Position numbers and translations under genes: made by a program. Positions 6,158 to 49,613 of a DNA stretch of 64,000 nucleotides are shown here, in pieces (the stretch's first letter is position 1; every line of letters starts with the position of its first letter). The stretch comes from Giardia intestinalis (lineage: Eukaryota): the NCBI GenBank assembly GCA_000002435.2, contig CM018791.1; one strand, given 5' to 3'. The notes beneath the pieces are model-generated. The model had not been told where the DNA came from, ran no database searches, and worked only from the letters and a program-made list of their open reading frames with translations.

Positions 6158-8362
6158 ATGTCAGATGCAGATGACGCTACCATCGAGCAGGCTCTCTGCA
6201 CTGAACCACTTGATTTACAGGTGGCCATGCCGCATATTAAACGAATTGTAAGTAAGGATTTCAACGCTCGCGAAAACATTATTGAGCTCCTTCAGCGTAG
6301 AGGGGCTGAGATCCTGCGGAATATCCTCAAAGCAGACGGCCTGCTCAACTCCACTGCTGACTGCTGGAAGCATGTCGTCCTGTTGGCCATACTAATTATT
6401 AAGTACTCGACATCCTCGTCTCTTGTCTACCTCATACAGCTCCTCCCTGACCGAGCGGCGAAGCTGGGTTCTGGGACCGACGGAGAGCATTATGCAGTAA
6501 GGCATATGTCACAGATTTTGGAGTTCTATATCCGCAAGCTTGTCTCTGACTCTATCTCCAGGTTTCCAGTGCCTCCTGAGGGCACAGAAGGAGATTCGTT
6601 GGTTACCTGGAAGACAGAGCTGGCGTACGTTCGGCCAGTGATTGCTCTTCTCCTCGCTGTGATAACCAGCAAGCAGGGCGAGCATGCTAATGTGACGGAA
6701 ATAGAGCCACTTCAAGAACGGGATATGTGCACAGGGTACATCTCTATGTTATCCCTCCTTCTCATATTCGAGGCTGGCAAGCGCACGTTCGTCGAGGCAG
6801 ACGGGTTCACTGTCCTAATGATGGTTGCTGCACAAACTCAGTCCATCCCGGTAGTGACTGCCATTCTGACAGCCTTCCACAGCTGTATTTTCAACCTTGT
6901 CGACAGCGTCAACGAAGAACTGGATGTCCCGGCCGCTGACTCCGCTTCTGGAGATTGCAATCCTAAGCAGACCACAGTGTACAACCTAGTGGTGGATGCA
7001 TTTGCCTTTGTGCGTCCTCACGAGCTTATTGAGTCTGTATATGAGCGCTTCTACCGTCTGCACTACGTACCAAAGCAGCCCATCTTTACCGAGGACCAGC
7101 TGAAGCAGCAGCTCACCGAGCTCACCTTTTCGGTAGTCTTACTGTTTCATGACTGTGCCCTCCCAGAAACAACTGGCTTCGTGACAGGGGAGAATCTGCT
7201 CTTCATTGCGCAATACATAGTTTCGGTTACCAAGGGTGTTAGCTTGTCAAAGCCAGCGCTGTGGCAGTCCGATGGGTCGCTCGCCACGTTTAATGCCAAG
7301 GTCAAGGGAGGATTAGAGGCACTTATGCGGCTGATCAGTTTGCACACAGAAACCCCCACGGCCATTAGGATTCTGATAAACGGATACAACCATGAGACTA
7401 AGGAGCATGATTCAGTGCAGTCCCAAGGCCCTGTTGCGGAGGACAAGTCAGTGGATGTTGAGGGTGGGGAAGAACCTCTCAGGAAGGCTGAGATGCCCGG
7501 AAATATTGACTTTCTCCGAGCTGTGGTTAACGCTGTCGCTGTCACTGACTGCTCAACGCTTGCTGGGACGCTGTTCTCCTTCCTCTCTCTCGTTGCATCG
7601 TACTCTTGCTGCTATAGTCGAAGATTGATAATACCACTGGAGTTTACATCCTATGAGAGGATTCTAAGATGGGTGAGTGCGTATGGCTCCTACATTCTCG
7701 GCGGGCACGCTGAGACGACAAAAATAATCCAGAACATGGAGGATACGTGCCTGGTCCTTGTGTGGCTGGTCGAGAACTCCTCTTCTGACAACGAGGAGGG
7801 TGCAGATATCGAAGAAGTGGCATCTAAGACGCTAACTCGCAATGAAATATGGGCCCGCCTTTCCATCAAGCAGGAGGCCCATGGAGTGCTGATGCTGGCC
7901 ATGGCAATGTCTGTCATCAAAGGTCTTGTGCCCACACTGACTGGTCTATTATCTGTTATCTCGTGCTTCATGGGCACCGATGGCTATTTCGTTAGACTCC
8001 TTACCGTCTTTAAAGAGAAGAAAGTAGAGATATGCAATTTCCTTGTTGATCTCTGTGCCAACCTAAGCAAGCAAGGCGCGTTCTGCTACGTTGTCTGCAA
8101 TAACATACTCAAAGGAATGTCGTCACTTCCAGATGCATTCTCATCGGTTGACGTCAACCAGTTGGCGGACGCGCTTCTCCCCCTGGGCTTCAGCGACGGC
8201 GATGACGACGTTCTGATGAAGATTGTTAACAGTTACGAGGAGATTCCTCCCGTTATAAAGGAATCTTGTAAGAAGATCTTGGCAATCATGGATGCTGTGG
8301 ACGGTGAAGAGATGGTGGCAAGGTCAGAGCCCTATGCCAGCCAGCCTGCAGCCGTTGGATAG
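6158..8362 (+). CDS. hypothetical protein (~734 aa)
   Basis: Track ORF 6122 starts at GTG; the first ATG is 6158 (MSDADDATIEQ). Divergent from the RNAP gene with ~62 bp between starts. AGTAAAT lies 4 nt after the stop. Confidence 0.55.
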   Translation: MSDADDATIEQALCTEPLDLQVAMPHIKRIVSKDFNARENIIELLQRRGAEILRNILKADGLLNSTADCWKHVVLLAILIIKYSTSSSLVYLIQLLPDRAAKLGSGTDGEHYAVRHMSQILEFYIRKLVSDSISRFPVPPEGTEGDSLVTWKTELAYVRPVIALLLAVITSKQGEHANVTEIEPLQERDMCTGYISMLSLLLIFEAGKRTFVEADGFTVLMMVAAQTQSIPVVTAILTAFHSCIFNLVDSVNEELDVPAADSASGDCNPKQTTVYNLVVDAFAFVRPHELIESVYERFYRLHYVPKQPIFTEDQLKQQLTELTFSVVLLFHDCALPETTGFVTGENLLFIAQYIVSVTKGVSLSKPALWQSDGSLATFNAKVKGGLEALMRLISLHTETPTAIRILINGYNHETKEHDSVQSQGPVAEDKSVDVEGGEEPLRKAEMPGNIDFLRAVVNAVAVTDCSTLAGTLFSFLSLVASYSCCYSRRLIIPLEFTSYERILRWVSAYGSYILGGHAETTKIIQNMEDTCLVLVWLVENSSSDNEEGADIEEVASKTLTRNEIWARLSIKQEAHGVLMLAMAMSVIKGLVPTLTGLLSVISCFMGTDGYFVRLLTVFKEKKVEICNFLVDLCANLSKQGAFCYVVCNNILKGMSSLPDAFSSVDVNQLADALLPLGFSDGDDDVLMKIVNSYEEIPPVIKESCKKILAIMDAVDGEEMVARSEPYASQPAAVG

Positions 8363-8365
8363 ACT

Positions 8366-8372
8366 AGTAAAT
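8366..8372 (+). promoter_or_regulatory. AGTAAAT putative polyadenylation signal
   Basis: Matches the Giardia-type AGTRAAY poly(A) signal, immediately 3' of the stop at 8360-8362. Confidence 0.35.
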
Positions 8373-8415
8373 AACCCTGAAAAGCTAGATTTTTTAATCT
8401 CCCGCCTCAGCCACA

Positions 8416-9951
8416 ATGAGCCGCGCCACAGGGGTTCTGTTGGGCCCACATGAGGCTGAGATCAATGGAGAAAGAGTCATAAGCGCTGCGTGCTCCGATG
8501 GAGCGCAATTCAGAAGGCTGAGCATGGCATGGAGCTCGGCAGCAAGATTCCTTTCAGACACTCCTTCTGTACTTCCTCTTGAGAGTATCAATGGCAATCC
8601 GCAAAATCAGTCGATATACATCCGATTTAGGAAGATGAGCGGAGTATCTATGCAAACACTACTTCAACGGCATCAAAGTGCCAACCTCCCCTTCTCAGAG
8701 GAAGTGCTCCGCTCATATGCACTCCAGCTATTGACAGGAATATCTGCTCTCGAACGACTCAATTTCTGCCCGACCGTCTCACTTGATACCATACTCGTCT
8801 CTTCTAGCTTCTCTACCGATCCGTGCAACGCTTCCATGGATGATGCGCTAGACTACGCCGGTCTGCTCATTCACGGAGAGTGCTTCTTAACGTGTTATGA
8901 TCCAATTATTTCGACGGGGAAGAGTACTAGGGACTACGATCTCCACCCCCCTCCTCTGGTGTCTTTTTCTCGTGTTTTTGATGAGCTTTGCAAACTTCAA
9001 AAGCAGGACACATGTGCTGGCAGTGTGCCATATCGTGTGAGCTCCAAACCTGGCTCAGGGTATTCAAGGGAACTGCGGGTGCTCATGCGAGCTTGTTCTC
9101 AGGAGCATTCTGCATTGCGCCCATCTGCATACCATGCTTTGCAGTGGTTTAAACGGATTCATGCTGGGGTTGACCTCAGTTGTGTCAATGGTATTCCGAC
9201 CGTGTTCAGTATTACTCCAAGGGTGTCTCGCTCGCCCAGCCCGGTACGTAGTCCGAGTCCTAGCAGACTCGTCTCCCACCCAGACTATCCCGCACTATTG
9301 GGTAGCCAGCGCTGTCTAAGAGCCTATCTTGATAGTGAGCCTGACAGAAGTCTCGTTGAGGACCTCCTCGAGACGGCTGTTGCAAGAAGAAGTGTGATGG
9401 GGATAACAACTATTTCTGATCATTCAAGAAGGAAACAGGTCTTTGCCACTATCAAGCCTCGGGTGGGTGTTGCCGTTATGCGGGAGACTGCTCTTATGGC
9501 AGCGACCCGTGCTAATAATAGTGAAGCCGTACAACATATCTTAAAGACGTCTCCAGAGCTTCTGTGTTCAATACATTGTGGAGATACTAGTCTGCGGATA
9601 GCATCCAGACGAGGTCTGTTTTCTATAGTCCGCCTGCTGTTAAGTGAGCTTGGCATTCGGAGCCCTGCCGGCTGGACCGCGCTGATGTCTGCTGCACGAC
9701 ATGGTTATGATGACATAGTGAGGCTGTTACTCCCGGAGGCCGGAGCACAGTTACAGGATGGCACATCTGCGTTGATGCTTGCGTGCAGGTATGGCCACGC
9801 AAATTGTATAAGAGAACTGCGTGCCGTGGAGAAGAACCTGACAACAACCAATGGAAGCTCTGCCGTTGACTTCATTGCGGAGTCGTTTCACAACGGTACC
9901 CTGAGTAACGCAACAAGACAGAAGTGTCTAGATGCGCTAGCTGGTGAGTAA
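8416..9951 (+). CDS. NEK-like degenerate (pseudo)kinase domain fused to C-terminal ankyrin repeats
   Basis: ATG verified at 8416. The N-terminal half has kinase-like C-lobe remnants (YALQLLTGISALERL, SRELRVLMRACSQEHSALRPSA) but lacks HRD and DFG. The C-terminal 33-aa ankyrin repeats include TALMAATRANN and WTALMSAARHGYDDIVRLLL. AGTAAAT overlaps the stop. Confidence 0.6.
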   Translation: MSRATGVLLGPHEAEINGERVISAACSDGAQFRRLSMAWSSAARFLSDTPSVLPLESINGNPQNQSIYIRFRKMSGVSMQTLLQRHQSANLPFSEEVLRSYALQLLTGISALERLNFCPTVSLDTILVSSSFSTDPCNASMDDALDYAGLLIHGECFLTCYDPIISTGKSTRDYDLHPPPLVSFSRVFDELCKLQKQDTCAGSVPYRVSSKPGSGYSRELRVLMRACSQEHSALRPSAYHALQWFKRIHAGVDLSCVNGIPTVFSITPRVSRSPSPVRSPSPSRLVSHPDYPALLGSQRCLRAYLDSEPDRSLVEDLLETAVARRSVMGITTISDHSRRKQVFATIKPRVGVAVMRETALMAATRANNSEAVQHILKTSPELLCSIHCGDTSLRIASRRGLFSIVRLLLSELGIRSPAGWTALMSAARHGYDDIVRLLLPEAGAQLQDGTSALMLACRYGHANCIRELRAVEKNLTTTNGSSAVDFIAESFHNGTLSNATRQKCLDALAGE

Positions 9952-9960
9952 ATAGTATCG

Positions 9961-11580
9961 TCACGTAGAGACCATAGTAGTGAGCGTAACTGGATTGGTG
10001 GATAGTCCGTGCTTTGTTGTCTTTCTTTTCTTAACAAGTATGATTGCTAGTGTAATGACGGTAGCAGCAAGAAGTAGCACAGCAAGTGGCAACGTGATCG
10101 ATAGAATAAGCGTTGTCCTGTTAGTACTAAGCGGAGGAAAAGCAAAGGGAGAATCAGGATCATTATCCAAACATACCACAGAGGTCTCAGAAGATGATAC
10201 CAGACACTGCTTGCATCCCTTTATACCCTTCAGAGGTCCCGAGATAGTAGAATTATCGCAGCGAATGCAACCATGGACAGAGCTGGTCCAAAAGTATCCT
10301 GGTGCACAAAGATTGCACCCACTAGGCGACGAATCCTCGCAAGAGAGACAACCAGGTGCACACTGACTGCAGTGCACCTCCTCAGAGTCGACTGAAACTT
10401 GCGTGGAGTAGTATCCGTTAGAGCAGAAAGTACATATGTCCGGACTTGATGGACAAGCAAAGCAGCCAGTCATGGTACACTTAATGCACCCGCCGTCACT
10501 AGTCCGATGGTAGCCACACGTACAAGCTCGACAAGTCCCATAGGCGGCAGGATCTATTCGCTCTGCGGCGGCGCATACTAGTTTTCCCGGGGCATATAAT
10601 GAACTATAACACCCTCCTTGATGCAGAAAGTACCCCAGGGCACATTTAAGGCAGAGACCTTTGTCTGTTTGAGCACATGCAGAGATCTGCTGACCTGAAG
10701 TAGAAACGCACCTCCCATCGAGAGGAAAGAAGCCCTGGCTGCACCTAGAGCAATACCTTGCCGATCCCAGGATAGCATGACATTCCACGCACGGTCCTAC
10801 GGCGGCTTCGGCGCACTCTGGAACACAACGACCCATAGTGAGCACGTTAGAATCAGTCCTATATATGAAATATCCGTCAACACAGGAGGTACACTGATCT
10901 TCGATTGCTCGTTCACAAGAGTAACAATTTGCTGGACAGAGATCGCATGTATTTGTGATAGGATTTGCTGCATAGCCGATGGGGCAGCTGTGCAAACATA
11001 TTCTGCGTGCCGGCTGTAGAAAGTATCTTTTCTCACACAAAACGCAAGTGGCTCCAGAATCAGTTCCGTTGTTCTCGCAAACACAATTTGCTGGACAACC
11101 GCCCACTTCTAGACAGTTCCTCCCATCTAGGGAAAGACCAAATGGTATTTCGCACGCGTTGCAAATGTCAGCGTTATCGGTGCAAAGAGCGCAGCTGCTG
11201 ACCTTGCAAAGGATACACCCTTGTGCTCTGTTGCCTTGGTCTAGTCCATATCCAGCGATGCACGTACACTGTCTAGTATAGTAATTGGACGATGCACCGA
11301 TTCCACAGGAGGCCACGCACGATCTTCCATTAATGCTAACCATATAATCATACTCAGAACAATCTAGACATACAGGGGCTGTATCAGTGGAAGAGGGTAA
11401 CATGCAGCGAGAGCATCCTCTTATACCAGCGTATCCATGAACTGGCACTTCAGTACTACAAGAGATACAATATCCCCTGTCATTACCTTGAACTGCCAAG
11501 AAAGACGTACTATTGCACGACGTACATGAGGCATCGTCTTGACCATCACACGTAGTACAGGATTGGTGGCACGACGACAT
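9961..11580 (-). CDS. high-cysteine membrane protein (HCMP/VSP-like CXXC-rich ectodomain, one C-terminal TM, ~25-aa cytoplasmic tail)
   Basis: Dense CXXC and CXC motifs run through the ORF. A C-terminal TM (LILSITLPLAVLLLAATVITLAIILV) is followed by a KKRK tail, not the VSP CRGKA ending. The track start at 11604 is TTG; the first ATG is 11580 (MSSCHQSCTTC). No signal peptide is evident. Confidence 0.55.
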   Translation of the reverse strand: MSSCHQSCTTCDGQDDASCTSCNSTSFLAVQGNDRGYCISCSTEVPVHGYAGIRGCSRCMLPSSTDTAPVCLDCSEYDYMVSINGRSCVASCGIGASSNYYTRQCTCIAGYGLDQGNRAQGCILCKVSSCALCTDNADICNACEIPFGLSLDGRNCLEVGGCPANCVCENNGTDSGATCVLCEKRYFLQPARRICLHSCPIGYAANPITNTCDLCPANCYSCERAIEDQCTSCVDGYFIYRTDSNVLTMGRCVPECAEAAVGPCVECHAILGSARYCSRCSQGFFPLDGRCVSTSGQQISACAQTDKGLCLKCALGYFLHQGGCYSSLYAPGKLVCAAAERIDPAAYGTCRACTCGYHRTSDGGCIKCTMTGCFACPSSPDICTFCSNGYYSTQVSVDSEEVHCSQCAPGCLSCEDSSPSGCNLCAPGYFWTSSVHGCIRCDNSTISGPLKGIKGCKQCLVSSSETSVVCLDNDPDSPFAFPPLSTNRTTLILSITLPLAVLLLAATVITLAIILVKKRKTTKHGLSTNPVTLTTMVST

Positions 11581-11914
11581 GTTAAAGTAGGCTCTCGAGA
11601 CCAAATTACTAGGTAGCCGTATCCTAAGAAATTAAAAGCTGATTGTTACGTAGAATTGTGTACATTAACATCAAGTAGCTGCATTGTATTACTGTAGCAT
11701 TGGTGAGAACATCTCTTGGATTTTTAGCGCTGCAGAGAAGGCCCGGGATCTGGTTGGTAAGATAACCTTTGTCCAGTGCAGTAGAAATGTCTTATTCATC
11801 AAAACACTGTGGTCGCGAGGAAGGTCTTGGTCAGTACAGATGCTCACTTTGTGCAACATAATCAAGAACCCGATTCAGTTTACAGTTGGACGAGAGCAAA
11901 TAAAAACTCCTAAT

Positions 11915-12472
11915 TTACTTGCAGCACCCGCCGCCCAGGCAGCAGAGCGCCGCGGCGTACATGGCTGTGAAGACTACCACATCGACGAGCCCGAGGACCA
12001 CGCCCGCCCACTTGTTGGAGGGGCCCTCAAGAAGGCCGCGGGGGCCCGCCGGGACGATGGCCGCGATGACGACGAAGGCGACGATGCAGCCCAGAATGAG
12101 CCCGAGGAACTTCAGCCCGCAGCTGTCCTTGTGGATGAAGAACGAGCCGATGACCACGGTGAAGGCCCAGCCGGCCGCGAGGGAGACCATCGACAGCCCG
12201 CTGTAGCCGCCCACGGTGTTGCTGAACGACTTATCGTTACCATTGTTCCCGTTCTTCGCCAGCACGGAGGTGATCAGGTACGTGAGGAAGTCCGCGAGCG
12301 AGGGGTACCCGACCCCGACCCCGATGCGGAACGCGTACTTGAGGAAGCAGTCGAGGCACCCGCAGCACCCGCAGCAGCAGCAGCTGCAGCAGCAGAGGAC
12401 GCACTTGAGGATCTGGACGACGATGCTGTAGATGATGCAGATCACGGCCACAATCATTATGAAGAGGAAGAG
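11915..12472 (-). repeat. inverted repeat arm 1 (558 bp, 100% identical to 14093..14650)
   Basis: Checked directly by reverse-complementing 12421-12480 against 14091-14150. The ORF track also shows identical proteins and identical off-frame ORFs at 11919..12206/14359..14646 and 12216..12431/14134..14349. Confidence 0.85.
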
Positions 12473-12676
12473 CTTGCCCTCATTTTTATCAGTAAGACAC
12501 TGTATGGGATTTTTCCCATTACTGTTTCCCTTACTACCATTACTATCGAAACACGTTTTCAGCGTTTCTCCAATTGTTTTAGGATTTCTCCCCGGAAACC
12601 CTACAATCAGAGCATAAACAATCATCGGAACGCCCACACAGATGAGGGCAATGACGTCCTCATCGCAGCAGCACAT
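11915..12676 (-). CDS. poly-cysteine polytopic membrane protein, paralog A (253 aa)
   Basis: ATG verified at 12674-12676 with AT-rich upstream (aatttaaaATG). Four to five hydrophobic TM segments. Cys clusters MCCCDED, CCCSCCCCGCCGC and a C-terminal CCLGGGCCK. Codons are strongly GC3-biased. Confidence 0.6.
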   Translation of the reverse strand: MCCCDEDVIALICVGVPMIVYALIVGFPGRNPKTIGETLKTCFDSNGSKGNSNGKNPIQCLTDKNEGKLFLFIMIVAVICIIYSIVVQILKCVLCCCSCCCCGCCGCLDCFLKYAFRIGVGVGYPSLADFLTYLITSVLAKNGNNGNDKSFSNTVGGYSGLSMVSLAAGWAFTVVIGSFFIHKDSCGLKFLGLILGCIVAFVVIAAIVPAGPRGLLEGPSNKWAGVVLGLVDVVVFTAMYAAALCCLGGGCCK

Positions 12677-13126
12677 TTTAAATTCCTTCGAACAAACCGA
12701 GTAAATAGATTTTGACGTATTGACGGTGTAAGGAACTTATGCAGATGCTTGTCTAATGGCACGTGTCCACAACTAGATTCAATATAGTCAGCTATATTTT
12801 CAAGTTTAGCGGCAACCCTTAAAAAACTATGCATGTAAACAAATTACACCAACAATCATAAATACTCGGATGGCTTCAGTGGTCCCGGGGGGCAAGAGGT
12901 AAGGCATTGATACAGACTGTTTCGTTGCTAGTGTACGATGCGACGAGCGTGATATAACAAACGTACACCTGGATCTAAGAGGCCTGAATCTCTCCGTCTA
13001 ATCGCACTCTTTGAACATAGATTTTCCTCCAGACACTTAAGTTTTCGCTTTGAAACGGACAGGTCTGCATTCAGCTGCTGATGTCGAAGTGTGGTGTGTT
13101 GCAGGGCACTCTCCTGCCGTCAAGCC

Positions 13127-13543
13127 TCACCCTCCACTTTTCCAGTTAGCTGTCCATCCCAAGTCTGATTTCGGAAAGTATACCTTGTTGCAGTACCTCA
13201 GAGCTGTTTGCAGTAAACCTTTTGCTGAATTGGGGTCACGGCTTTCGAACTGTGGAACCAGTCTTTCATCTGCGAGGGTCTGCTGAGGGCTGCGCCCCGG
13301 CTGTTCTGCGCACGCTCCCCTGCGGAGGCGGTGGCCGGGGGCGCACCGGTGGCAGTACTCCGGGACGGCGCAGACCGCGCAGTGCTCGACGGCGCAGGGC
13401 CCGGGGGTGCACGCCCGCCCGCCGTCTGCAGGGACCAGCTCGCCCTGGCAGCGCAGGCAGGCGGCGCCCGCGCACCGCTCGCAGCCGGGGACCGTCACCC
13501 CGCAGGGCAGGGCCGCGAGGAGGCGGAGGAGGCGTCCGGGCAT
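13127..13543 (-). pseudogene. VSP/HCMP-like cysteine-rich ORF fragment (CXXC repeats, no TM or CRGKA tail)
   Basis: From the internal ATG at 13543, MPGRLLRLLAALPCGV reads like a signal peptide. It is followed by CERCAGAACLRCQ, CAVEHCAVC and CHRC motifs. It lies in a ~75% GC tract where long ORFs occur by chance in every frame, so a coding call is weak. Confidence 0.25.
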
Positions 13544-13900
13544 CGGCGTGTTTTCGGCCAAAAATCTGGCGATGTCTACGGCGCCCGCGACCTGGGACAC
13601 GCACTGGGCGCGCCACTGGCGCCTGGCCTGGGACTACGTCCTCGGGGCCGCCGTGGCAGGGCTCCTCCTGGTGTGCGGGGTGCGCTCCCCGGGCCAGGCA
13701 GGGGACCCGGACCCCCGGCGCAGCCCCCGCAGCCCCCGGCGCCGCAGCTCCTTCGAGGGCCGGGCTCCCCCGCGCCGGCGGGAGACGAGCGACCCCGACG
13801 TCGACTGCTCCGACTAGCCCGGGGCACGCGAATCCCATAAAGTGAACGTCAACGCTTTTCCGGCACAATCACCGGGTAGTTTATTGATGGAGAAAAATAA

Positions 13901-14650
13901 ATGTGCTGCTGCGACGAGGACATCATCGCCCTCATCTGCGTGGGCATCCCGATGATCGCGTACGCGGTGGTAGTCGGCTTTCCGGGGAGAGACCCCAGCA
14001 AGGTTGGAGCGGCATTGAAAGAGTGTCTCAGTAACAAAAATGGTAAGAATCTTCTGGCCTGCATCAGTGAGAAGGGGGATAACTACGGCGGCCTCTTCCT
14101 CTTCATAATGATTGTGGCCGTGATCTGCATCATCTACAGCATCGTCGTCCAGATCCTCAAGTGCGTCCTCTGCTGCTGCAGCTGCTGCTGCTGCGGGTGC
14201 TGCGGGTGCCTCGACTGCTTCCTCAAGTACGCGTTCCGCATCGGGGTCGGAGTCGGGTACCCCTCGCTCGCGGACTTCCTCACGTACCTGATCACCTCCG
14301 TGCTGGCGAAGAACGGGAACAATGGTAACGATAAGTCGTTCAGCAACACCGTGGGCGGCTACAGCGGGCTGTCGATGGTCTCCCTCGCGGCCGGCTGGGC
14401 CTTCACCGTGGTCATCGGCTCGTTCTTCATCCACAAGGACAGCTGCGGGCTGAAGTTCCTCGGGCTCATTCTGGGCTGCATCGTCGCCTTCGTCGTCATC
14501 GCGGCCATCGTCCCGGCGGGCCCCCGCGGCCTTCTTGAGGGCCCCTCCAACAAGTGGGCGGGCGTGGTCCTCGGGCTCGTCGATGTGGTAGTCTTCACAG
14601 CCATGTACGCCGCGGCGCTCTGCTGCCTGGGCGGCGGGTGCTGCAAGTAA
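13901..14650 (+). CDS. poly-cysteine polytopic membrane protein, paralog B (249 aa)
   Basis: ATG verified at 13901 (gagaaaaataaATG). The N-terminal ~64 aa have diverged from paralog A. From LFLFIMIV to the stop it is identical to paralog A. Confidence 0.6.
   Translation: MCCCDEDIIALICVGIPMIAYAVVVGFPGRDPSKVGAALKECLSNKNGKNLLACISEKGDNYGGLFLFIMIVAVICIIYSIVVQILKCVLCCCSCCCCGCCGCLDCFLKYAFRIGVGVGYPSLADFLTYLITSVLAKNGNNGNDKSFSNTVGGYSGLSMVSLAAGWAFTVVIGSFFIHKDSCGLKFLGLILGCIVAFVVIAAIVPAGPRGLLEGPSNKWAGVVLGLVDVVVFTAMYAAALCCLGGGCCK
14093..14650 (+). repeat. inverted repeat arm 2 (558 bp, 100% identical to 11915..12472)
   Basis: Identity starts at codon 65 of paralog B and stops at its TAA. Flanking 3' sequence diverges immediately after the stop. 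Confidence 0.85.
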
Positions 14651-14662
14651 ACGGCGCCCGGC

Positions 14663-16183
14663 CTACTGCTCGGTCTCCTCGTAGATCGTGATCTCGGAGC
14701 AGTCTGCGCACCGGAGCCCGCTGTCCTCCGAGACGGGGACCTGGAAGATCACCCTGCAGAAGCGCATGAACCGGTTTGCGTACGCGTCGCTCGGGACCGC
14801 GGAGATCCCGTCCTTGTCTGCGCACAGCCCCTTCGCCCTGCGCTCGACGTGCTTGATGCTCCTGAACTCGGTGAGGAAGTCGACGACGCCCATGTGGAGG
14901 ACCCGGTAGTAGAGGGCCGACCCCCGCAGCGTGGGCCCCAGGGCGCAGGCGGGGGAGAACGCGTAGAGCCCGCCCTCCTCGCTGTGGAAGATGTCGCTGC
15001 TCTGGATGGCCGCCTCGAACGTGAAGCGGCGCCGGAAGACCTCCCGGAGGTACTCGTCGGGGGGCAGCGCGGCGAGGAACGCGGACGTCCCCCGGCTCCC
15101 CCCGGCCGCGATGCTGTGGCCCACCGGGGGCAGCATGTCCGAGACGTCCCGCGTGCTGAGGATGGTTCTCGGGGAGCTGGCAGCAAGAAGGCGGTCGTAG
15201 AAGCGCTGCACAGGGGTCTTGGCATCTTCGCTGTGGACTTTATCGGCTTCGATAGTGTTGTTGGTTGGCGTGCCCGGGGCCGCTGCGGGATCATCGTCAC
15301 GCTCTCTGTCCTGAATACACGGGATATCGTCCGTGAGACCCAAGAGTAGGCTGTAGTCTATCAGGTTGTGCTGCTTGAGCCAATCTGAGTCTGCCTTGAG
15401 CTGATGGATCAGGAGCCGCCGCCGGAGGGTTGTGAGGTAAATGTAGTTCTCCATATTTGTGTCCTTCAAGGTCTTTTTGGCCCGATCATCAGGAGCATGC
15501 AGCTTTGTGTGCCGGCCAACCCAGGAGCCCTTCAGGTCATACCGCTCAACTATCTTTCGAGGAGTGGCGAAAAGGTTTGGTATGATAATAAAATGCTTAC
15601 CATGCTTGGAGGTCCTATGTGGCGCTGAAGAAGTGCCGGGCTTACCGGTAGTGATAGTGAACATTGCGTAGATCCGGATGAGAAGTGAGCTAGGGTTATC
15701 TAGAAGGTGCCGCCCGTATGATGCGCAGATCTTTAGCATGAGAACAAGCTCCTTGGGCTTTAGTTGCTTAATAAGATACTTACCAGACTCGCTGAAAATA
15801 AAGAATGTGGGGCTTTTACCGGGCGACTTCATTAGCCCAGGGTGGCTGCATGTGACAAACTCTTTTAGCAGCGACTGAGGATTGAGGGAATCTTTTGTCA
15901 TTAGCGTTCTAAACATAGACGCATGATAGAAGATGGCAGTCAAATCGCTTCCAAGTGGCGCACTGGTGTTGGGATCCACCTCACTGCCGGGTAAAGCCAA
16001 TACTGTCATAAGGCCTTCTGTCTCGGAGCTGTATGGGTTCTCACCAGTCTGAGTTTGAGTTTCAATAACTTTTCCAATAGCCTGTTGCACGCGCCGTACA
16101 TGTGGATAGAGCGAACTCTGAACAGTCAGTTGCTCGCCAGAATATGGCCGTTGGTCATACTCCAACTTCCCCAACAGAACCAT
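14663..16183 (-). CDS. phosphatidylinositol phosphate kinase (PIP5K/PIPK family)
   Basis: ATG verified at 16181-16183 (aaaaaATG context). PIPK signature NLIDYSLLLGL is present, along with YDLKGSWVGRH and IIIPNLFATPRK. The C-terminal half (~14750-15300) is very GC-rich, unlike the N-terminal half. Confidence 0.8.
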   Translation of the reverse strand: MVLLGKLEYDQRPYSGEQLTVQSSLYPHVRRVQQAIGKVIETQTQTGENPYSSETEGLMTVLALPGSEVDPNTSAPLGSDLTAIFYHASMFRTLMTKDSLNPQSLLKEFVTCSHPGLMKSPGKSPTFFIFSESGKYLIKQLKPKELVLMLKICASYGRHLLDNPSSLLIRIYAMFTITTGKPGTSSAPHRTSKHGKHFIIIPNLFATPRKIVERYDLKGSWVGRHTKLHAPDDRAKKTLKDTNMENYIYLTTLRRRLLIHQLKADSDWLKQHNLIDYSLLLGLTDDIPCIQDRERDDDPAAAPGTPTNNTIEADKVHSEDAKTPVQRFYDRLLAASSPRTILSTRDVSDMLPPVGHSIAAGGSRGTSAFLAALPPDEYLREVFRRRFTFEAAIQSSDIFHSEEGGLYAFSPACALGPTLRGSALYYRVLHMGVVDFLTEFRSIKHVERRAKGLCADKDGISAVPSDAYANRFMRFCRVIFQVPVSEDSGLRCADCSEITIYEETEQ

Positions 16184-16313
16184 TTTTTAATCATCCTCCG
16201 ACGCTTTTCCTTTCGATCGGATGCCAATATTATCCTATTTACTAAGATAGTACGAGCCATGAGAGGTATAGTGGCTGCGAATCCTATATATGTAAATAGA
16301 AAATAAAGAACTA

Positions 16314-16673
16314 ATGAGCACAGGACATAACGAGAAAGAGCACTCAATCACAGTAGACCTTCACGAGGAAATAGAAAACTTCATGAACAATGTGATCTCC
16401 CTAGAGGTGGAGCTTGCCTCCCACATTCGAGGACTGGATCTCATGTCTCACCAGCTAAACAAGATCATTGACAATCTCACTGGGTGTAAGACGCAGGAAG
16501 CAGAGTATGACAGTGACACCACAGATAATGGAGAGCCCCCGCGTCCCAAATACTCCATGGAAGGATTTGAGAAGCGTGTACAAGAGGTGATGGAAGAAAT
16601 AAATAAAGACGCCGTTGCGCTAAGGCATCTGCGTGAAGAAGCCATCCAAATCCGTGAGAATTGCTTGGCGTAA
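16314..16673 (+). CDS. small acidic coiled-coil protein (119 aa), hypothetical
   Basis: ATG verified at 16314 after atatatgtaaatagaaaataaagaactaATG. Heptad-like acidic sequence. Fits exactly between two minus-strand genes. Confidence 0.5.
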   Translation: MSTGHNEKEHSITVDLHEEIENFMNNVISLEVELASHIRGLDLMSHQLNKIIDNLTGCKTQEAEYDSDTTDNGEPPRPKYSMEGFEKRVQEVMEEINKDAVALRHLREEAIQIRENCLA

Positions 16674-16680
16674 GGATGCT

Positions 16681-19605
16681 CTATGCAAATCTGGCTAAAA
16701 GGCTGCGGGTTCCTAATCGAAGTTGATCTGGTGTTGGACAGTTGGCAAAGTCATATGTGCGTGGACTGGATACCGAATCGTCATCTTGTTTGGAATAATA
16801 TGTAATAAAGTAGTACAAGTGTGATGGGTGTTCGAACTCTGTCAGGCATTGGTGCAGCTGCTCAAAGCCCTCCTCCGTGGGCTCTCCTCTCATCAAGAAG
16901 CAAATACCTATAATACCTACAACTACGTTCATGCCCGCCCTTAGCTTTTGTAGCAGATGCTGATGGTTAGCAGACAGCTGTTGCGCATCACGAAGCTGCA
17001 GCTCGTAGTAGGACAAGAGAGCATCAACCTTCTCTCCTACATTCGTACACCGTGTAGCCGACAGGACGCTCTGACCCTGATTGAAGGTAGCCTGAGTAAG
17101 AAACCCAATACTTCCCAAAATGGACTGGTAGGAGAATTGAGAGTACTTAGGCAAGAGCTTAGTGAAGTCCACATCAAATGGCTGCGTGCCAAATGGAATC
17201 CGTGGAATGACTTCCGTGACAAGTTGCAGGACATCAGCAACAAGTTCCGAGGTTACACCCAAGCGTAGGTTGAGCTTCTCCAAGGCGTTGCTCAGCTCCA
17301 CACATTGGCCGTAGATATCCAGGAGTTTGTCAAGTATTAGCTCTTCGCTATAGTCTATACCCGTAATTTGGAAGAAGCTCTTGTATCCCAGAAGAAACTC
17401 TATCCCAAGGGGTAGTATTTCCAGAGCAGTTGCCGTAATGTGAAGCTGCATGTCCTGGAAAGAAACAACTACCTGGCCGTGGACTCCTGCAATTATGCAC
17501 ACAGCATTCGGCGACTTCTTCCCCACCTCAGAGAGGATAGATGCAGAGAAGGGCCGCTTAAGTAGGAGCTCATGAAGGGTAGAAAAAGACTCCTTAGGGC
17601 TTATCTTTAAAGAGACCCTTAAGGGTAGATCGGTGGCTTTCGGAAAAACAGAGCTCTCACGAACTAGAGCACTCGAAAACAATGGAAGGGATAGGCTGCG
17701 CGTTACAACAAAGGGTACTGACAGAAGACAGTCCTCTGACGGGATCTTTACATTGGCACAGATGGAAAGATGCAGAGATGGTGAGACAAAGAAGGAAAGA
17801 TCGGAGATCCCTAGCTTGATGTAGACAGTAGCCGGTGCTCCGCTGCCAAGATGCACTATTGTACTTGTTATTGATCTGAAGCATTCTCTATCCCCAAGTT
17901 GAATAAAAGAAGACGGTGGGCCTGCTAGTGGTGCATGGATATCTTTGTTATCAGAGGAAAGAAAAGAGGGATACTCTGCAAGGGACGATAGGTCGGTGAT
18001 GGGCTCCTCATAGCTTCCGCAGCCAGTAACTCCGAGCGTTGCCGAAGGCAATCGACCAGATACAGCTTTAAGTGTTAGTTCTATTATGGTGTAATTTGTG
18101 TTGCCATCCCGATAAAACTTACTGATGCCGCAGTTAACAGTAATGAGCTCATCCAAGCCTGTGCGCATGCTCGCATGCTGGGCTTTTAAAGCGCTTACTC
18201 GCTTCTGGGCTTCCTCCATCAAGGTCTTCGTTACAGCTTGTTTCGGGATAGCAATAGGTGAGAGAAGAGAAGGAAGCAAACTACTGGGTCTTCCATCAAC
18301 GTCCAAGGGGTTGGTCCCAAGGAGGTGAACCTGTATAGATCCACTGCGGGACTGGACCACAAACAAGCCATCCTGGCTACACATCTTTGGAGGACTACGA
18401 GGTACAAACAATTGGGCCATGTATTGCGGAGTATGAACGCCCACAGGCTCGTCGATGCTATCCGATAGCCTAGACGTCCATCTAAGTTCACCTCCGCGGA
18501 AGAAGTGAAGTGTCCTATTGGAGTCTAAGACAACAATTGACGAAATCTCAGGCAAATTGATCCTTCTCTGCCGAATCGGCTGGGAGGTGGACTCCTTTTC
18601 CTTGACTGGAGCTCTGAATAAGGCCATGCTGAATAAGAGCCCATCTGGGAGCTGATTTTCCACGGAAAGCAATCCTGTAGATGCGTTGACAAGTGTTATA
18701 CCGTGTGTGTGCAGAGCGATGACCTCGCCTTCCAGTCCTGAGTCTACTCCGAAGCAGCGGCCGTAGGAAAGTTGCTGAATCCGCTCACCAATGACATAAG
18801 TCCATTGTGGCTTCAGCGGAGAAGAGCGGACGTCCTTGCTTGATTGTGGCACACCGCGCAAAAGGGGGTTTCCCTCATCATTAAATGTACTTGCAGGTCC
18901 AGTTGCATCATGCTCGGTACTACTATTCCATGCTTCACCTCCAGTATCATTCATAACATCTGCACAGGAAAAAGATACAATCGTGTAATCAAACGTGGCT
19001 ATGACCAATGAGTTAGTCCCCGGGCAAAAGGCCATCGGAGTAGGGAAACTGTACATAAGTCCTAGACGGTGGGTGGCCATCACTCTACGGGCACAGATGT
19101 GTAGTATGCCATCGTCTGTCCTTACTGCAAGCCTACTATGATAGAGGGCAGCGCCGGCCTCAGTACTAGGACTTGGCAAGGTGATGACACATGTGGAAAT
19201 TATGTACCTGCTAAAGTGCACCGTACTCACCAGCTCTAAGCCTATATCGCCGTCTTGCAATCTTTTAGGAGTGTAGATACCAATCGAGTGGGGATGAACT
19301 ACCGCCAACTCCAAATTTTCGGGCTTGCTGGCCGCCTCGTCAATGAGCGGGGATGGACCAGTGAAGAAGCCCAACTCAAGGCCCAGAATGGGGTTTTCTG
19401 TCTCGCTAGAAAATACTGTGTTCGTGAGAGTCTCGGACTCGTTACTCTCAGTCCGCAGCACCGTGAGCCGCCCCGCCAGGGATCCGACGACAATCTGAGC
19501 CGAGTTGTTCTTGGCGCGCATCAGATTAAGGACTGCCACTGCCCTAGCATCCACACGCTCCTCCAAGGCGTGAGACCAGCAGGGAACCGTTGAAAAGAGA
19601 GACAT
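16681..19605 (-). CDS. BBS9: BBSome subunit BBS9/PTHB1-like protein (974 aa)
   Basis: ATG verified at 19603-19605. The N-terminal pattern MSLF..W..(30 aa)..IVVGS..G.L....PILGLELG.F.....LAVVHP...IY mirrors the PTHB1 N-terminus as I recall it (MSLFKARDWW...IIVGSFMGYL...PVLQVEVGKF...LAVLHSRKL). Assignment is from memory only. Confidence 0.45.
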   Translation of the reverse strand: MSLFSTVPCWSHALEERVDARAVAVLNLMRAKNNSAQIVVGSLAGRLTVLRTESNESETLTNTVFSSETENPILGLELGFFTGPSPLIDEAASKPENLELAVVHPHSIGIYTPKRLQDGDIGLELVSTVHFSRYIISTCVITLPSPSTEAGAALYHSRLAVRTDDGILHICARRVMATHRLGLMYSFPTPMAFCPGTNSLVIATFDYTIVSFSCADVMNDTGGEAWNSSTEHDATGPASTFNDEGNPLLRGVPQSSKDVRSSPLKPQWTYVIGERIQQLSYGRCFGVDSGLEGEVIALHTHGITLVNASTGLLSVENQLPDGLLFSMALFRAPVKEKESTSQPIRQRRINLPEISSIVVLDSNRTLHFFRGGELRWTSRLSDSIDEPVGVHTPQYMAQLFVPRSPPKMCSQDGLFVVQSRSGSIQVHLLGTNPLDVDGRPSSLLPSLLSPIAIPKQAVTKTLMEEAQKRVSALKAQHASMRTGLDELITVNCGISKFYRDGNTNYTIIELTLKAVSGRLPSATLGVTGCGSYEEPITDLSSLAEYPSFLSSDNKDIHAPLAGPPSSFIQLGDRECFRSITSTIVHLGSGAPATVYIKLGISDLSFFVSPSLHLSICANVKIPSEDCLLSVPFVVTRSLSLPLFSSALVRESSVFPKATDLPLRVSLKISPKESFSTLHELLLKRPFSASILSEVGKKSPNAVCIIAGVHGQVVVSFQDMQLHITATALEILPLGIEFLLGYKSFFQITGIDYSEELILDKLLDIYGQCVELSNALEKLNLRLGVTSELVADVLQLVTEVIPRIPFGTQPFDVDFTKLLPKYSQFSYQSILGSIGFLTQATFNQGQSVLSATRCTNVGEKVDALLSYYELQLRDAQQLSANHQHLLQKLRAGMNVVVGIIGICFLMRGEPTEEGFEQLHQCLTEFEHPSHLYYFITYYSKQDDDSVSSPRTYDFANCPTPDQLRLGTRSLLARFA

Positions 19606-19750
19606 AGTTCTCTGCCCAGGGCCAAAACGAGAAAAGATGAAAAAATATCACATCTGTACCCCAATGTGTAAAAATGTCACGCCATAATGCAAAACCTAAA
19701 TTTTATTTTAAATTCATTTTCAATGCTGCCCGAAAAGCGAGGACGACTCG

Positions 19751-20230
19751 ATGACGCACAGCCAGGGGTACAGGTGTAAGACGCGCTACTGCTTCGCACG
19801 CAAGTTCCGTAGACACGGAATGGCCAACCTGACGACATACAACCGCGTCTACAAGCTCGGCCAGTACGTCAACATCAAGGTGAACGGGGCTTATCACAAG
19901 GGGATGCCCCACCGCTACTACAACGGGCGCACAGGCACAATCTTCAACATCGGGCCGCGTGCCCTCGGTGTCCAGATCCAGAAGCGCGTCCGCGGCCGCA
20001 TCATGCTCAAGCGCATCAATGTGCGTCTGGAGCACGTTCACCCGTCAGACTGCAGGAAGAACCACCTGGAGCGCGTTGCCGCCAACGACGCTGCCCGCAG
20101 GCTCGCGAAGGAGACCGGCCAGCCTGTCCCATGCCTCAAGAGACAAAACGCCCTTCCCAGGGCCGCACACGTGGTCAGCATAGCATCTGCCATCGACATC
20201 ACCCCACTCAAGTATGACGGAGTTTTCTAG
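19751..20230 (+). CDS. RPL21: 60S ribosomal protein L21e
   Basis: MTHSQGYRCKTRYCFARKFRRHG...KRINVRLEHV is colinear with eukaryotic L21e (MTHSKGYRRGTRY..FSRKFRKHG..KRINVRIEHI), and its 159-aa length is typical. AGTAAAT is at 20241-20247. Confidence 0.9.
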   Translation: MTHSQGYRCKTRYCFARKFRRHGMANLTTYNRVYKLGQYVNIKVNGAYHKGMPHRYYNGRTGTIFNIGPRALGVQIQKRVRGRIMLKRINVRLEHVHPSDCRKNHLERVAANDAARRLAKETGQPVPCLKRQNALPRAAHVVSIASAIDITPLKYDGVF

Positions 20231-20240
20231 GCTCCGACGA

Positions 20241-20247
20241 AGTAAAT
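20241..20247 (+). promoter_or_regulatory. AGTAAAT putative polyadenylation signal for RPL21
   Basis: Lies 11 nt after the TAG stop at 20228-20230. Confidence 0.35.
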
Positions 20248-20261
20248 GGCCTGCGGGGCGG

Positions 20262-22076
20262 CTAGTGGAGGCTGGCCTTCCACCGGTTCCTCGACGCGCT
20301 CTCACCGCGCTGCTGGTTTGGGCCGAGGACTACATTCTGTGCCTTCGTGACTTGCTTCCGGGAAGATGGACGGACGATGTGCTGCTCCGGTATGGCTGAG
20401 TCGTTAATGATATTGAACCGCCGCCTTGGAGCCGCCGCAGCCGATTGTGCAGAGTACGCACGTGCCTTGAAGCTGTGAGGAGCGGTCGAGGTGGCAAAGA
20501 AGCTCGGGGATGGATCGTTGGGGTGCATGGACGGAAGAGCAACTCCTGGGGCTGTTAGTGAATTCGGGTTTAGCTCCCCTTCTGGTGTATTTTGAATGCA
20601 CGAAAACGAAGCTGCATACCTACTGAAGGACGCCTCGAGGTTATCTAGTTCGCGATATTGAAGCTGCATCACCTCTAGTGAAGCGGGCCCGGCGGCTGTC
20701 CTTGCTCTGAGCTGGTTAGGTCTGATGGAAGCCCCAGGGAGAAGGCTCTCAGGTGCTATGTCCGATGTGTCTGAGGAGTGATCTGGCAAAGCGTGTTCTT
20801 GGTCATAGCTGTGCACAGAGCTTTCTGCCAGTGTGCTGGATGTGTTGCTTCTGGTGATGTAAACATGTCCCGAACCCTCTGGGCACGAGGCTGGTAGTAT
20901 AGCAGGGTCCTGCTGGCCCCGCGGTGGCTTACTGCTTGTGGTGTGCTTCTGAATTGATGCCGATGTTTTGCCTAGTGAGTTACTCGCCAGAGCACTCATC
21001 TGGAGCCCCGAGCTCCCTTCCTTTGTAGAAACAACGCTGGGACCCACTGGTGTTACGGTAGAGATAGCTGGTTTGGTGAAGGTTGGCGGCGGACTGTGGG
21101 AAAGCTCTACAATCATGGGCTCCACAGTTGGTATAGACTGGATTGGCCCTGCATGAGTCTCCTTTTTCTGACCTGCAACGGACCGTGCACCTGGCGCACA
21201 GAAAGATATAATCGGAGGCCTGCGGTACTCCCGCTGCATCTCAGTAGTGGATGATGGATTGCTCGAAGAAACAGATGTCCTAGCGCACGAATCATGCAGC
21301 CGCTGAAGCTCACCAGCGGTTTCAGCATCAGTGTGGGTAACGACCTGGGTATTCTTTGTACATGCAACTTCCCGAGCGATGGAGCAGGGGTCTCTGTATA
21401 TGGTGAGATCTATTGAGTCATCACATACTTGTGAACTTTGAGAATCTAGCGTTCCACCATCAGTGAGGTGAAAGGTAGCAGATCCTGGGAAAAGGGAACC
21501 GCCGTGAGACCGTGCCCTCTCATATGATGTCCTACGCTCAAGACGACTAGTTCCCCGACCATCAGCAGATCTTTGTGCCAAAAAGGAACTGATAAGGGAG
21601 CAGCCGCTCTTTTGTTGTGCCGCAGACTGCTTCTCTGCCCCTAGTGTGTACCTGCTCAGCACCCGAACAGACACCGGCCGCGGTACACGCGTACGTACTT
21701 CTGGCTTGACATACTCGTCTCCTATGTTGCACAGGGTGGCAGCCTGTGGTAGATGTATGGATCTGTCTCTATCCCATGATGACTTGGGGCCGTCTGCAAT
21801 GCTCAAAAGCACTCTCTGCGGACGGATGTTGGCGCCATCTGGCACATTTGGCAGTAGGTATTCCATACCGCGCACAAATGCACGGCCAGCGTTAGTCTTG
21901 GACGGCAGAATGGAGATGTGGTCCCGCATTTCATTACACAGAATCGGCTGTCCTTTCTTTGGAGCATCAATCTTATCTGATCCTATAGGGCTGTTAACGT
22001 ATGAAATTTTCCTCAATTTTCCAGTCCTATTGCTGGTAGTGCGTAGAGCTTGTGTTGCGATCACTCCTGGATCCAT
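20262..22076 (-). CDS. Ser/Pro/Thr-rich low-complexity hypothetical protein (~604 aa)
   Basis: Track start 22172 is TTG. The first ATG is at 22074-22076 (MDPGVIATQ), preceded by gatttaaaaat. Confidence 0.5.
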   Translation of the reverse strand: MDPGVIATQALRTTSNRTGKLRKISYVNSPIGSDKIDAPKKGQPILCNEMRDHISILPSKTNAGRAFVRGMEYLLPNVPDGANIRPQRVLLSIADGPKSSWDRDRSIHLPQAATLCNIGDEYVKPEVRTRVPRPVSVRVLSRYTLGAEKQSAAQQKSGCSLISSFLAQRSADGRGTSRLERRTSYERARSHGGSLFPGSATFHLTDGGTLDSQSSQVCDDSIDLTIYRDPCSIAREVACTKNTQVVTHTDAETAGELQRLHDSCARTSVSSSNPSSTTEMQREYRRPPIISFCAPGARSVAGQKKETHAGPIQSIPTVEPMIVELSHSPPPTFTKPAISTVTPVGPSVVSTKEGSSGLQMSALASNSLGKTSASIQKHTTSSKPPRGQQDPAILPASCPEGSGHVYITRSNTSSTLAESSVHSYDQEHALPDHSSDTSDIAPESLLPGASIRPNQLRARTAAGPASLEVMQLQYRELDNLEASFSRYAASFSCIQNTPEGELNPNSLTAPGVALPSMHPNDPSPSFFATSTAPHSFKARAYSAQSAAAAPRRRFNIINDSAIPEQHIVRPSSRKQVTKAQNVVLGPNQQRGESASRNRWKASLH

Positions 22077-22181
22077 ATTTTTAAATCTTCTAGACCCTCC
22101 CAAGCAGAGCCCAAAACCCGAAAGTGTGTCTCTGGCTCCCAAAGAGCCAGGTGATAGAGATTTACACGACAAACTAGATAA

Positions 22182-23849: not shown

Positions 23850-23969
23850 CAATTATGTGCTTTTCTATCTGTGCTATGCAAATGTAATTAAGTATGAAAT
23901 TTGTGTTTTAAATACATTTCAACTATTTTTACACAATCTCAAAACACAAAAGGAAACCCAGAGCGACGA

Positions 23970-25403: not shown

Positions 25404-25410
25404 CTGTCGG

Positions 25411-25698
25411 CTATCCTCCGTGAACCATGGACAGGAATGTCACCTTGTCTCCCGCCCTTATTCTGGTATCCTTTGGCAGTACGGTAATATCTTGATCGTT
25501 AATCAATGCGATGATCCCAGGGGCCAGATTGCTCTGAGGACCAGTAAATACGTTCCCATGCTTCTCTAAAAGCTTTGTGGCAACGTAGTCAACGACTTCT
25601 GTGAAGTCAACTGGGTGTGTCACAAGCATTTCGTGGTCGCTCTTCTTCGTTTTGGAGAGCTGCTCCAGGCCTGCCAAGAGCTCGATAGTTATGGACAT
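25411..25698 (-). CDS. URM1: ubiquitin-related modifier 1 (URM1, MoaD/ThiS fold)
   Basis: 95 aa ending in the diglycine ...MVHGG. The GIIALINDQD and AGDKVTF motifs match the URM1 GIITLINDTD...GDIISF...LHGG pattern. ATG verified at 25696-25698 with ccggaattaaaaATG upstream. Confidence 0.85.
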   Translation of the reverse strand: MSITIELLAGLEQLSKTKKSDHEMLVTHPVDFTEVVDYVATKLLEKHGNVFTGPQSNLAPGIIALINDQDITVLPKDTRIRAGDKVTFLSMVHGG

Positions 25699-26255
25699 TT
25701 TTAATTCCGGGCCTGAACGTGGGATTTTTGACCTCTATCTGTCTTGCGGCAATTACAAGCTCTACTACAAACACCGAAGTAGCACTTAGCAAGTGGTCTA
25801 GTATGTTAGTATTACAAAAGATGAACTACAATCCGGGCAACTGGCTTCGATCTCCTCTGCTCGCTGAGGCCATGTACTATGCTTCCTGCAACCGCGAGGT
25901 ACTAGCTCCAGAGAGCAAGGCCCATCAGTACATTCAGAGTCGCCACATACTAACTTTCCAGAGACCTCGAAGACAGTCTCAAAGAAGCGTGTGTGCAGTT
26001 TCCTGTGTCCCAAACCCCCCTCAGCTAGGAGCTCCTATGGTAGCCGACGAGGCCTGGAGGCCCAACCTGAGCTTCTTTGCCTCTTCACTTCCACGCTTTT
26101 TGGGAAACGTGCGCCGAATTCCAGGTGCACTAGACTCTATATTGTTCTCTCCCATCCAGAGGGTTGATCTGCCCCTAAGCGCACCAACAAAAGTAAAGCT
26201 GTGCAGATGAAGACAGCTAACGAGGGTTTATTCACTCACAATCTTGGCCACCGCT

Positions 26256-29495: not shown

Positions 29496-29546
29496 TTTTG
29501 TGGACAATGGGGTCAACATAACTGCAAGCTTCACCAGAAAAATGAA

Positions 29547-49483: not shown

Positions 49484-49536
49484 ACAAACAGAAAGAAGAA
49501 ATATCACGTGCATGCTGCTGCCTGGCCCTGACGTGT

Positions 49537-49610: not shown

Positions 49611-49613
49611 TGT

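Follow-up and report, generated by a model that had tools for sequence, protein, structure and literature searches.

What makes the base composition of a conserved gene change partway along its coding sequence? The question is raised by a locus in a 64,000-nucleotide stretch of contig CM018791.1 (hereafter the window) from Giardia intestinalis WB (ATCC 50803), assemblage A, in which two paralogous genes (paralog A and paralog B), the spacer between them and the 3' half of the adjoining PIPK gene had been described, in an original prediction made from the letters alone, as a single island of codons ending in G or C. The window has 49.8% GC overall, and the three genes of the locus match G. intestinalis WB proteins exactly. 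The PIPK protein aligned with the Pfam family PIP5K (PF01504) over residues 118-477 (E = 8.4e-60; 202.9 bits against a cut-off of 27), and by this domain score, above the curated cut-off, the gene at 14663-16183 is a predicted member of that family. Giardia is a deep-branching, tetraploid and binucleate parasite of disputed sexuality, with subassemblage AI reported to be asexual. Our searches of the literature found no paper on this locus or on GL50803_112368, the PIPK fragment gene considered below. We propose that the GC-rich blocks are probably the footprint of a 1.87-kb low-copy repeat, here called unit R, that was enriched in GC by GC-biased gene conversion (gBGC) between its copies.

The GC excess of the locus is real and lies far above chance expectation, with 61.0% GC in 11900-15300 as compared with 49.1% in the remainder of the window. 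The profile did not, however, outline a single island across the paralogs, the spacer and the PIPK 3' half, because the excess is concentrated in three separate blocks, at 11914-12472 (63%), 13299-13817 (78%) and 14093-15164 (63-70%, with a GC content at third codon positions, GC3, of 0.93-0.98), and the stretches between them have normal GC. The value of about 75% GC first given for the spacer was confirmed, since 13299-13817 measured 77.8%. The claim that both paralogs use almost wholly G/C-ending codons holds for their C-terminal arms (GC3 0.93-0.935) but not for their N-termini, with GC3 values of 0.44 in paralog A and 0.75 in paralog B (13901-14092, 56% GC). Likewise, the predicted shift does occur inside PIPK, although its step is placed at about 15164 (codon 340) rather than at 15300, and is followed by a shoulder of GC3 0.6-0.77 reaching back to about codon 245. 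As had been anticipated of a quantitative profile, GC3 is far from uniform, amounting to 0.982 (164/167) in PIPK codons 340-506 and 0.572 in codons 1-339 (Fisher p = 6e-27). The background, 668 windows of 167 codons drawn from 19 other open reading frames (ORFs) of the window, had a mean GC3 of 0.512, a standard deviation of 0.055 and a maximum of 0.659.

The blocks lie in duplicated DNA. The arms at 11914-12472 and 14093-14651 form an inverted repeat identical at 558 of 559 positions, whereas the N-termini of the two paralogs are only ~73% identical. Unit R itself is present as two full copies, the second ~38 genes to the left, in addition to the inverted 559-bp arm A. The locus was compared across WB (A1), DH (A2), P15 (assemblage E), assemblage B, a fourth lineage (here the L006 lineage) and G. 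muris. A PIPK fragment gene of 157 amino acids, equivalent to PIPK residues 350-506, is annotated both in WB (GL50803_112368 / XP_001709973) and in DH (ESU39537), and the WB fragment is 99.9% identical to the full-length gene. Its neighbour in WB is paralog D (XP_001709972 / KAE8302978), which has an N-terminus identical to that of paralog B and lies outside the window but on the same WB chromosome (1.97 Mb), its accession number preceding that of paralog A by 38; the second-copy locus of WB was deduced from this accession order, six Logan contigs and DH.

Both ends of the unit were placed by homology. On the right, six Logan assemblies and the DH contig position the PIPK fragment beside another paralog arm, and homology stops exactly at 15164, as seen in L009/L014 and in L004; past the equivalent point, the second copy continues into ~400 bp of AT-rich sequence and then into a more distant third paralog. 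On the left, positions 7398-8748 of L016, the paralog D locus of DH, match window 13299-14651 at 97.2%, and the match starts only at 13299. Here, L004 and L016 denote segments 94933-112453 and 15315-32061, respectively, of the same DH contig (AHGT01000002.1).

As expected for gBGC, the GC-rich tracts coincide with the converted DNA, with steps in composition at 13299, at the ends of arm A and at the borders of the second copy. GC content rises from 53.0% to 79.5% across 13298/13299, and declines from 69.8% to 58.0% and then 53.5% across 15164, gradually and over ~300 bp, while arm A, with 63.3% GC, is set between flanks of 43.5% and 43.6%. At the second copy, GC content in L016 of DH changes from 54% to 80% on entry into the unit and stands at 44.5% immediately beyond it, whereas it goes from 72.5% to 44% in L004 of DH and from 45.5% to 72.5% in the WB-type L009.

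The shift is confined to part of the genus. GC3 of PIPK codons 352-506 reaches 0.92-1.0 in WB, DH and P15, while assemblage B has 0.32-0.76, the L006 lineage 0.24-0.52 and G. muris 0.33-0.80; the comparison of orthologous PIPK genes that had been suggested as a check thus detected the 3' GC shift in assemblages A and E only. A neighbour gene of 974 amino acids, taken as a measure of background GC3, gives 0.51 for A, 0.42 for B and 0.37 for the L006 lineage. Changes on the stem of assemblages A and E, polarised at sites where assemblage B and L006 agree, showed the strong AT-to-GC bias that characterizes gBGC. PIPK codons 340-506 underwent 57 AT-to-GC and no GC-to-AT substitutions, distributed as 12, 9 and 36 over codon positions 1, 2 and 3, whereas codons 1-300 underwent 36 and 10, respectively (p = 1.7e-4). 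The bias operated irrespective of codon position, replacement sites included, with the exception of 13818-13900, which has 48% GC: positions 1 and 2 of codons 340-506 contributed 21 AT-to-GC and no GC-to-AT changes, and the Gly/Ala/Arg/Pro fraction in the C part of PIPK is 0.31 versus 0.22 in assemblage B, with the N part unchanged. Third-position differences between A and E in codons 340-506 comprise six exchanges of G/C for G/C and three mixed ones, as compared with 1 and 74 in codons 1-300, and the scarcity of mixed differences indicates that AT-ending states were excluded for most of the time since the split, in both lineages.

The original prediction described the stretch between the paralogs only as a spacer; its GC-rich block contains two conserved ORFs, S1 and S2. 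GC content over 13320-13830 follows a strict three-base periodicity, with a single phase at 83-100%, and the third positions of both ORFs fall in that phase. The predicted product of S1 is of a secreted type, beginning with a signal-peptide-like stretch and carrying 12 Cys that follow a CXXC pattern; its conserved core comprises residues 1-82 (13298-13543; 80% GC, GC3 0.93). It has a homolog, P0086 (E = 1e-16), and is intact in assemblage B (L017 4945-5193), where 55% of its amino acids and 12/12 Cys are retained at 53% GC. S2, which diverges from S1 across a short AT-rich patch and has a GC3 of 0.95, encodes a protein predicted to cross the membrane once, with a basic tail rich in Arg, Pro and Ser. 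Its counterpart in assemblage B is also intact (L017 5285-5572; 61% amino acid identity, E = 3e-33, 51% GC) and has the same C-terminus, RRRETSDPDVDCSD. Both homologues occur in L017 in the same order and upstream of a paralog. Overall, S1 and S2 have about 79% GC in WB versus 51-53% in assemblage B, 67-79% GC at codon positions 1 and 2, and a Gly/Ala/Arg/Pro fraction of 0.46-0.50 versus 0.28-0.29 in assemblage B. The DH copy of S1 is not frameshifted, because the alignment revealed an in-frame deletion of 24 bp. Paralog A, paralog B and PIPK bear consecutive accessions, which suggests that no gene is annotated between the paralogs in WB, and we flag S1 and S2 as conserved small ORFs that appear to be unannotated.

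Gene conversion among the copies is active, and they evolve in concert in WB and in DH. At positions 14113, 14121, 14191, 14348, 14584 and 15083, the WB copies all carry one base and the DH copies all carry another, and a mosaic tract at 14539-14542 is common to two of the three DH copies. The copies predate the A1/A2 split, yet within a genome they are more than 99% alike, whereas the unique flanks differ by ~2% between isolates.

We can outline how the present state might have arisen. Unit R, consisting of S1, S2, paralog B and the last 167 PIPK codons, has a second copy ~38 genes off and a 559-bp inverted partial copy. It went through a run of strongly AT-to-GC biased substitutions in the ancestor that assemblages A and E share, and gene conversion holds the copies nearly identical. 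The most likely driver is gBGC, that is, GC-biased repair of the mismatches produced by copy-to-copy conversion; being blind to codon position, it could have taken GC3 to about 1 and at the same time shifted the proteins toward Gly, Ala, Arg and Pro. On this view, the enrichment in GC would stem from conversion between the copies, with a bias at the level of fixation and not of mutation, and assemblage E would have the duplication as well. A bolder form of the proposal, tentative and in our judgement rather improbable, is that strong GC-biased conversion operates in Giardia between dispersed and inverted low-copy repeats, possibly in mitotic or other non-meiotic repair, given the reported asexuality of subassemblage AI, and brings GC3 to about 1 even where purifying selection should oppose it, in the catalytic C-terminal portion of PIPK, a conserved lipid kinase.

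Several observations weigh against conversion between the copies as the cause. Unit R is not GC-rich throughout, with only 48-56% GC in 13818-14092; the low GC of 13818-13900 may reflect an AT-rich promoter held by selection, and that of the paralog B N-terminus a fast-evolving loop. The GC3 shoulder reaches ~300 bp past the current edge of the repeat, which copy-to-copy conversion alone does not explain. The duplication was not shown in assemblage E, for which the P15 contig ends in the spacer. Similarly, a near-identical second paralog copy could not be shown in assemblage B, where the PIPK 3' end is normal; of its assemblies, the BAH15c1 contig begins 423 bp upstream of the third paralog and the GS_B contig L017 represents a different locus. 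Two to three copies are also a small family for so strong an effect. Moreover, the C-terminal part of the PIPK-adjacent paralog already has a GC3 of 0.75-1.0 in assemblage B, indicating that part of the island existed before the A/E event and may have arisen differently. Since the A1/A2 split, unit R has undergone 12 AT-to-GC and 20 GC-to-AT changes, implying an equilibrium GC of 0.52, below the present 64-67%. Finally, biased mutation in repair synthesis and biased fixation fit the present data alike.

The equilibrium of 0.52 in unit R compares with 0.35 in 8.8 kb of unique flank (twofold, z = 1.69), which lends weak support to a GC bias still operating within assemblage A. In this flank (window 15165-24000, compared with L004 and L005 and polarised by P15), 82 GC-to-AT and 46 AT-to-GC changes have accumulated since the A1/A2 split, and its equilibrium is well under the present GC of 0.49.

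The original prediction had favoured gBGC at a recombination hotspot. A gBGC-like pattern was indeed found (57 versus 0). The data do not point to the hotspot: the blocks match the limits of a duplicated and homogenised segment, which argues for conversion between repeat copies rather than for a positional hotspot. An allelic hotspot of recombination or conversion would have to be fixed at this position, with the second copy GC-rich only by having been copied from here. It would leave the same substitution signature, and it has in its favour that the shoulder at codons 245-339, outside the repeat, is within reach of allelic tracts and not of copy-to-copy tracts, as well as the reported presence of GC-enriched genes in assemblage A conversion tracts (PMC12669663). 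However, the gradient around a position, independent of repeats, that a hotspot should produce was not seen on the left, where GC steps by 26 percentage points within 200 bp and exactly at the end of the duplication, 13299; a shoulder is present on the right only. The other copy, at a different chromosomal position, passes equally sharply into flanks of normal GC, and arm A is GC-rich over the converted 559 bp only. We therefore consider an allelic hotspot unlikely.

We give slightly less credence still to a local mutational bias, which could arise, for example, if repeated repair of breaks involved synthesis that is error-prone or GC-biased, or if the inverted repeats provoked break-induced replication. 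Such a bias would affect all codon positions and be confined to repeats, as observed, and the inverted arms could be fragile, with the DH assembly differing from WB by two arm-bounded inversions. Nothing in our data separates its products from those of gBGC. The recent changes in unit R, on the other hand, are not mainly AT-to-GC (12 versus 20), contrary to what a strong and ongoing GC-ward mutation bias should generate.

Gene conversion between the copies with biased fixation must also be weighed against selection for G/C-ending optimal codons in highly expressed paralogs, S1 and S2, to which the PIPK 3' end would be incidental. In G. duodenalis, all 26 optimal codons end in G or C and are preferred by highly expressed genes (PMC8393687). 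The window supplied a control in RPL21e (19751-20230), with a GC3 of 0.81 along the whole gene; in each of the six lineages compared, the gene stands 0.17-0.30 above its neighbour in GC3. This is the ordinary codon bias of translational origin known in Giardia. A bias of this origin is gene-wide, conserved and limited to synonymous sites; RPL21e displays these properties and PIPK, S1 and S2 do not. The paralog arm does so in part, its C-terminal GC3 richness being common to assemblage B, and this is a point in favour of codon selection. In PIPK, however, the change halts mid-gene, and the 21 stem changes at codon positions 1 and 2 are all AT-to-GC; S1 and S2 have their high GC at those same positions and a remodelled amino acid composition. 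The paralog A N-terminus, although on the same transcript as its arm, has a GC3 of 0.44. C and G are equally frequent at the four-fold sites of the PIPK 3' end (0.48/0.48, with 3% A/T), unlike at those of RPL21e (0.49/0.22, with 29% A/T), and the GC3 of this 3' end is above that of the ribosomal protein gene. Translational selection is thus contradicted for PIPK, S1 and S2 by the RPL21e control and by four-fold C/G usage, and for the locus as a whole we deem it very improbable.

Foreign or introgressed DNA, or an assembly artefact, would account for a composition so sharply unlike its surroundings but is hardly credible, given full-length orthology to normal-GC sequences of other Giardia lineages, the same sequence in the independent assemblies of WB, DH, P15 and six Logan runs, and the lack of any Rfam family in the region; as had been argued from the start, this is no simple horizontal acquisition, a horizontal island being excluded by the normal-GC orthologues in assemblage B, the L006 lineage and G. 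muris, to which the GC-rich half of PIPK is orthologous residue by residue.

The features of the locus are collected in the following table.

Table. Position and composition of the genes, arms and small ORFs in and around unit R (coordinates refer to the window).
Feature	Position	Strand	Description
Paralog A	11915-12676	-	XP_001710015
Arm A	11914-12472	-	Last 186 codons and stop of paralog A; inverted partial copy of arm B; 63.3% GC, GC3 0.935
Paralog A N-terminus	12473-12676	-	68 codons; ~73% identical to paralog B N-terminus; 43.6% GC, GC3 0.44
Unique spacer part	12677-13298	.	45.7% GC; outside unit R; carries the non-conserved 3' extension of ORF S1
ORF S1	13127-13543	-	138 aa
Unit R	13299-15164	.	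1866 bp; 67.7% GC; duplicated
ORF S2	13572-13817	+	81 aa
Paralog B upstream region	13818-13900	.	83 bp; within unit R yet 48% GC
Paralog B	13901-14650	+	XP_001710016; 249 aa
Arm B	14093-14651	+	C-terminal part of paralog B; GC3 0.93 (N-terminus of paralog B, GC3 0.75)
PIPK	14663-16183	-	XP_001710017; Pfam PIP5K
PIPK codons 340-506	14663-15164	-	Inside unit R; 69.8% GC, GC3 0.982; duplicated as the 157-aa fragment gene
PIPK codons 1-339	15165-16183	-	Single-copy; 50.8% GC; GC3 shoulder 0.6-0.77 over codons 245-339

The paralogs are Cys-rich, multi-pass membrane proteins from a family restricted to Giardia (21 clusters, all from Giardia-type sources), and Pfam gave no significant match for them, for S1 or for S2. 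Paralog A appears to be chimeric: its first 68 codons are nearer to the distant third paralog (L004 13164-13958 / P0080) than to paralog B, and its last 186 codons are the same as those of paralog B. In assemblages A and E, the stop codons of PIPK and of the paralog are separated by 12 bp (window 14651-14662), as compared with ~186 bp in assemblage B (L001 7560-7746), and in the BAH15c1 assembly the paralog ORF continues for 39 codons past the usual stop.

Gene order differs between DH and WB (L004 and L016 compared with window 8000-16200) by two inversions, one of ~75 kb and ~38 genes and the other of the 1.6-kb centre between the paralogs, both with the 559-bp arm in inverted copies at their ends. 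As far as it extends, the P15 contig follows the WB order. These may be true repeat-mediated inversions or the result of mis-threading of the 0.56-1.07 kb repeats in the DH assembly.

Surrounding genes had been regarded as uniformly balanced in codon usage, a view to which RPL21e is one exception and a second GC island, at 49100-49950, another. This island, of 66% GC, comprises the 3' ends of two convergent genes and a tRNA (49537-49610), and no repeat of it was found within the window. It is weaker in the L019 lineage (58-68% GC, with GC3 0.67-0.77 at both 3' ends), and its presence there indicates that it is older than, and different in kind from, the PIPK case. A scan of the whole window at the Rfam gathering thresholds returned that tRNA as its sole match, and the GC-rich region contained no RNA family, ruling out an rDNA (ribosomal DNA) fragment or a structured RNA in the stretch of 78% GC.

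PIPK offers a natural experiment, with half of a gene inside a converted repeat and half outside it, and with assemblage B as the unconverted control. If conversion is indeed the cause of the enrichment, part of the wide GC3 range of Giardia genes would record conversion history and not expression. This would matter for analyses of codon usage, for expression proxies and for ratios of non-synonymous to synonymous substitution rates (dN/dS), in which the PIPK C-terminus would falsely appear to be fast-evolving. Should the strong form of repeat conversion be true, repeat status would be a main determinant of that very wide GC3 range, and the same arms would also mediate large A1/A2 inversions. 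In any case, repeat arms can mislead short-read assemblies or mediate real inversions. gBGC is well known in mammals and other eukaryotes; the locus adds a new case to a process that was already known, which limits its conceptual novelty.

Within Giardia, two known patterns come close to the one described here. Translational codon bias (PMC8393687) likewise produces high GC3 and G/C-ending codons, but it is gene-wide, conserved and synonymous, unlike the pattern in PIPK, S1 and S2, which affects part of a gene, is lineage-specific and extends to all codon positions. Genes inside AI-AII conversion events have a median GC of 0.541, as compared with 0.488 elsewhere (PMC12669663), and a role of biased conversion in the GC-rich rDNA of Giardia has been suggested (PMC10123126). 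These amount to a genome-wide correlation and a suggestion, respectively, and neither covers this locus, the intragenic step, the polarised substitutions or the match with repeat boundaries.

The palindromes of primate X and Y chromosomes, which undergo GC-biased gene conversion, resemble the locus in organization. Their arms are more than 99% identical owing to arm-to-arm conversion, are GC-richer than spacer and flanks, and are involved in rare arm-mediated inversions (PMC8981503; PMC3723533). In the same way, the Giardia arms are identical at 558 of 559 positions, have 63% GC as compared with 44-46% in spacer and flank, and possibly bound the WB/DH inversions, and, as in X palindromes, recent replacements account for only part of the GC excess. 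The Giardia case differs in scale, 0.56-1.9 kb instead of tens to hundreds of kb, in an enrichment that is far stronger (GC3 about 1), and in having a third copy in direct orientation roughly 38 genes away.

The composition step itself has its counterpart in mouse Fxy (Mid1), with its 3' half in the pseudoautosomal region, where recombination is very frequent, and 28 of 28 replacement substitutions from AT to GC (PMC2631073). As in Fxy, composition changes inside one conserved gene, the 5' part being spared and the 3' part having gone through an exclusively AT-to-GC burst that included replacements. The driver in Fxy is obligatory meiotic crossing-over, whereas to our knowledge no meiosis has been observed in Giardia, and the affected part of PIPK is defined instead by its membership in a low-copy duplication.

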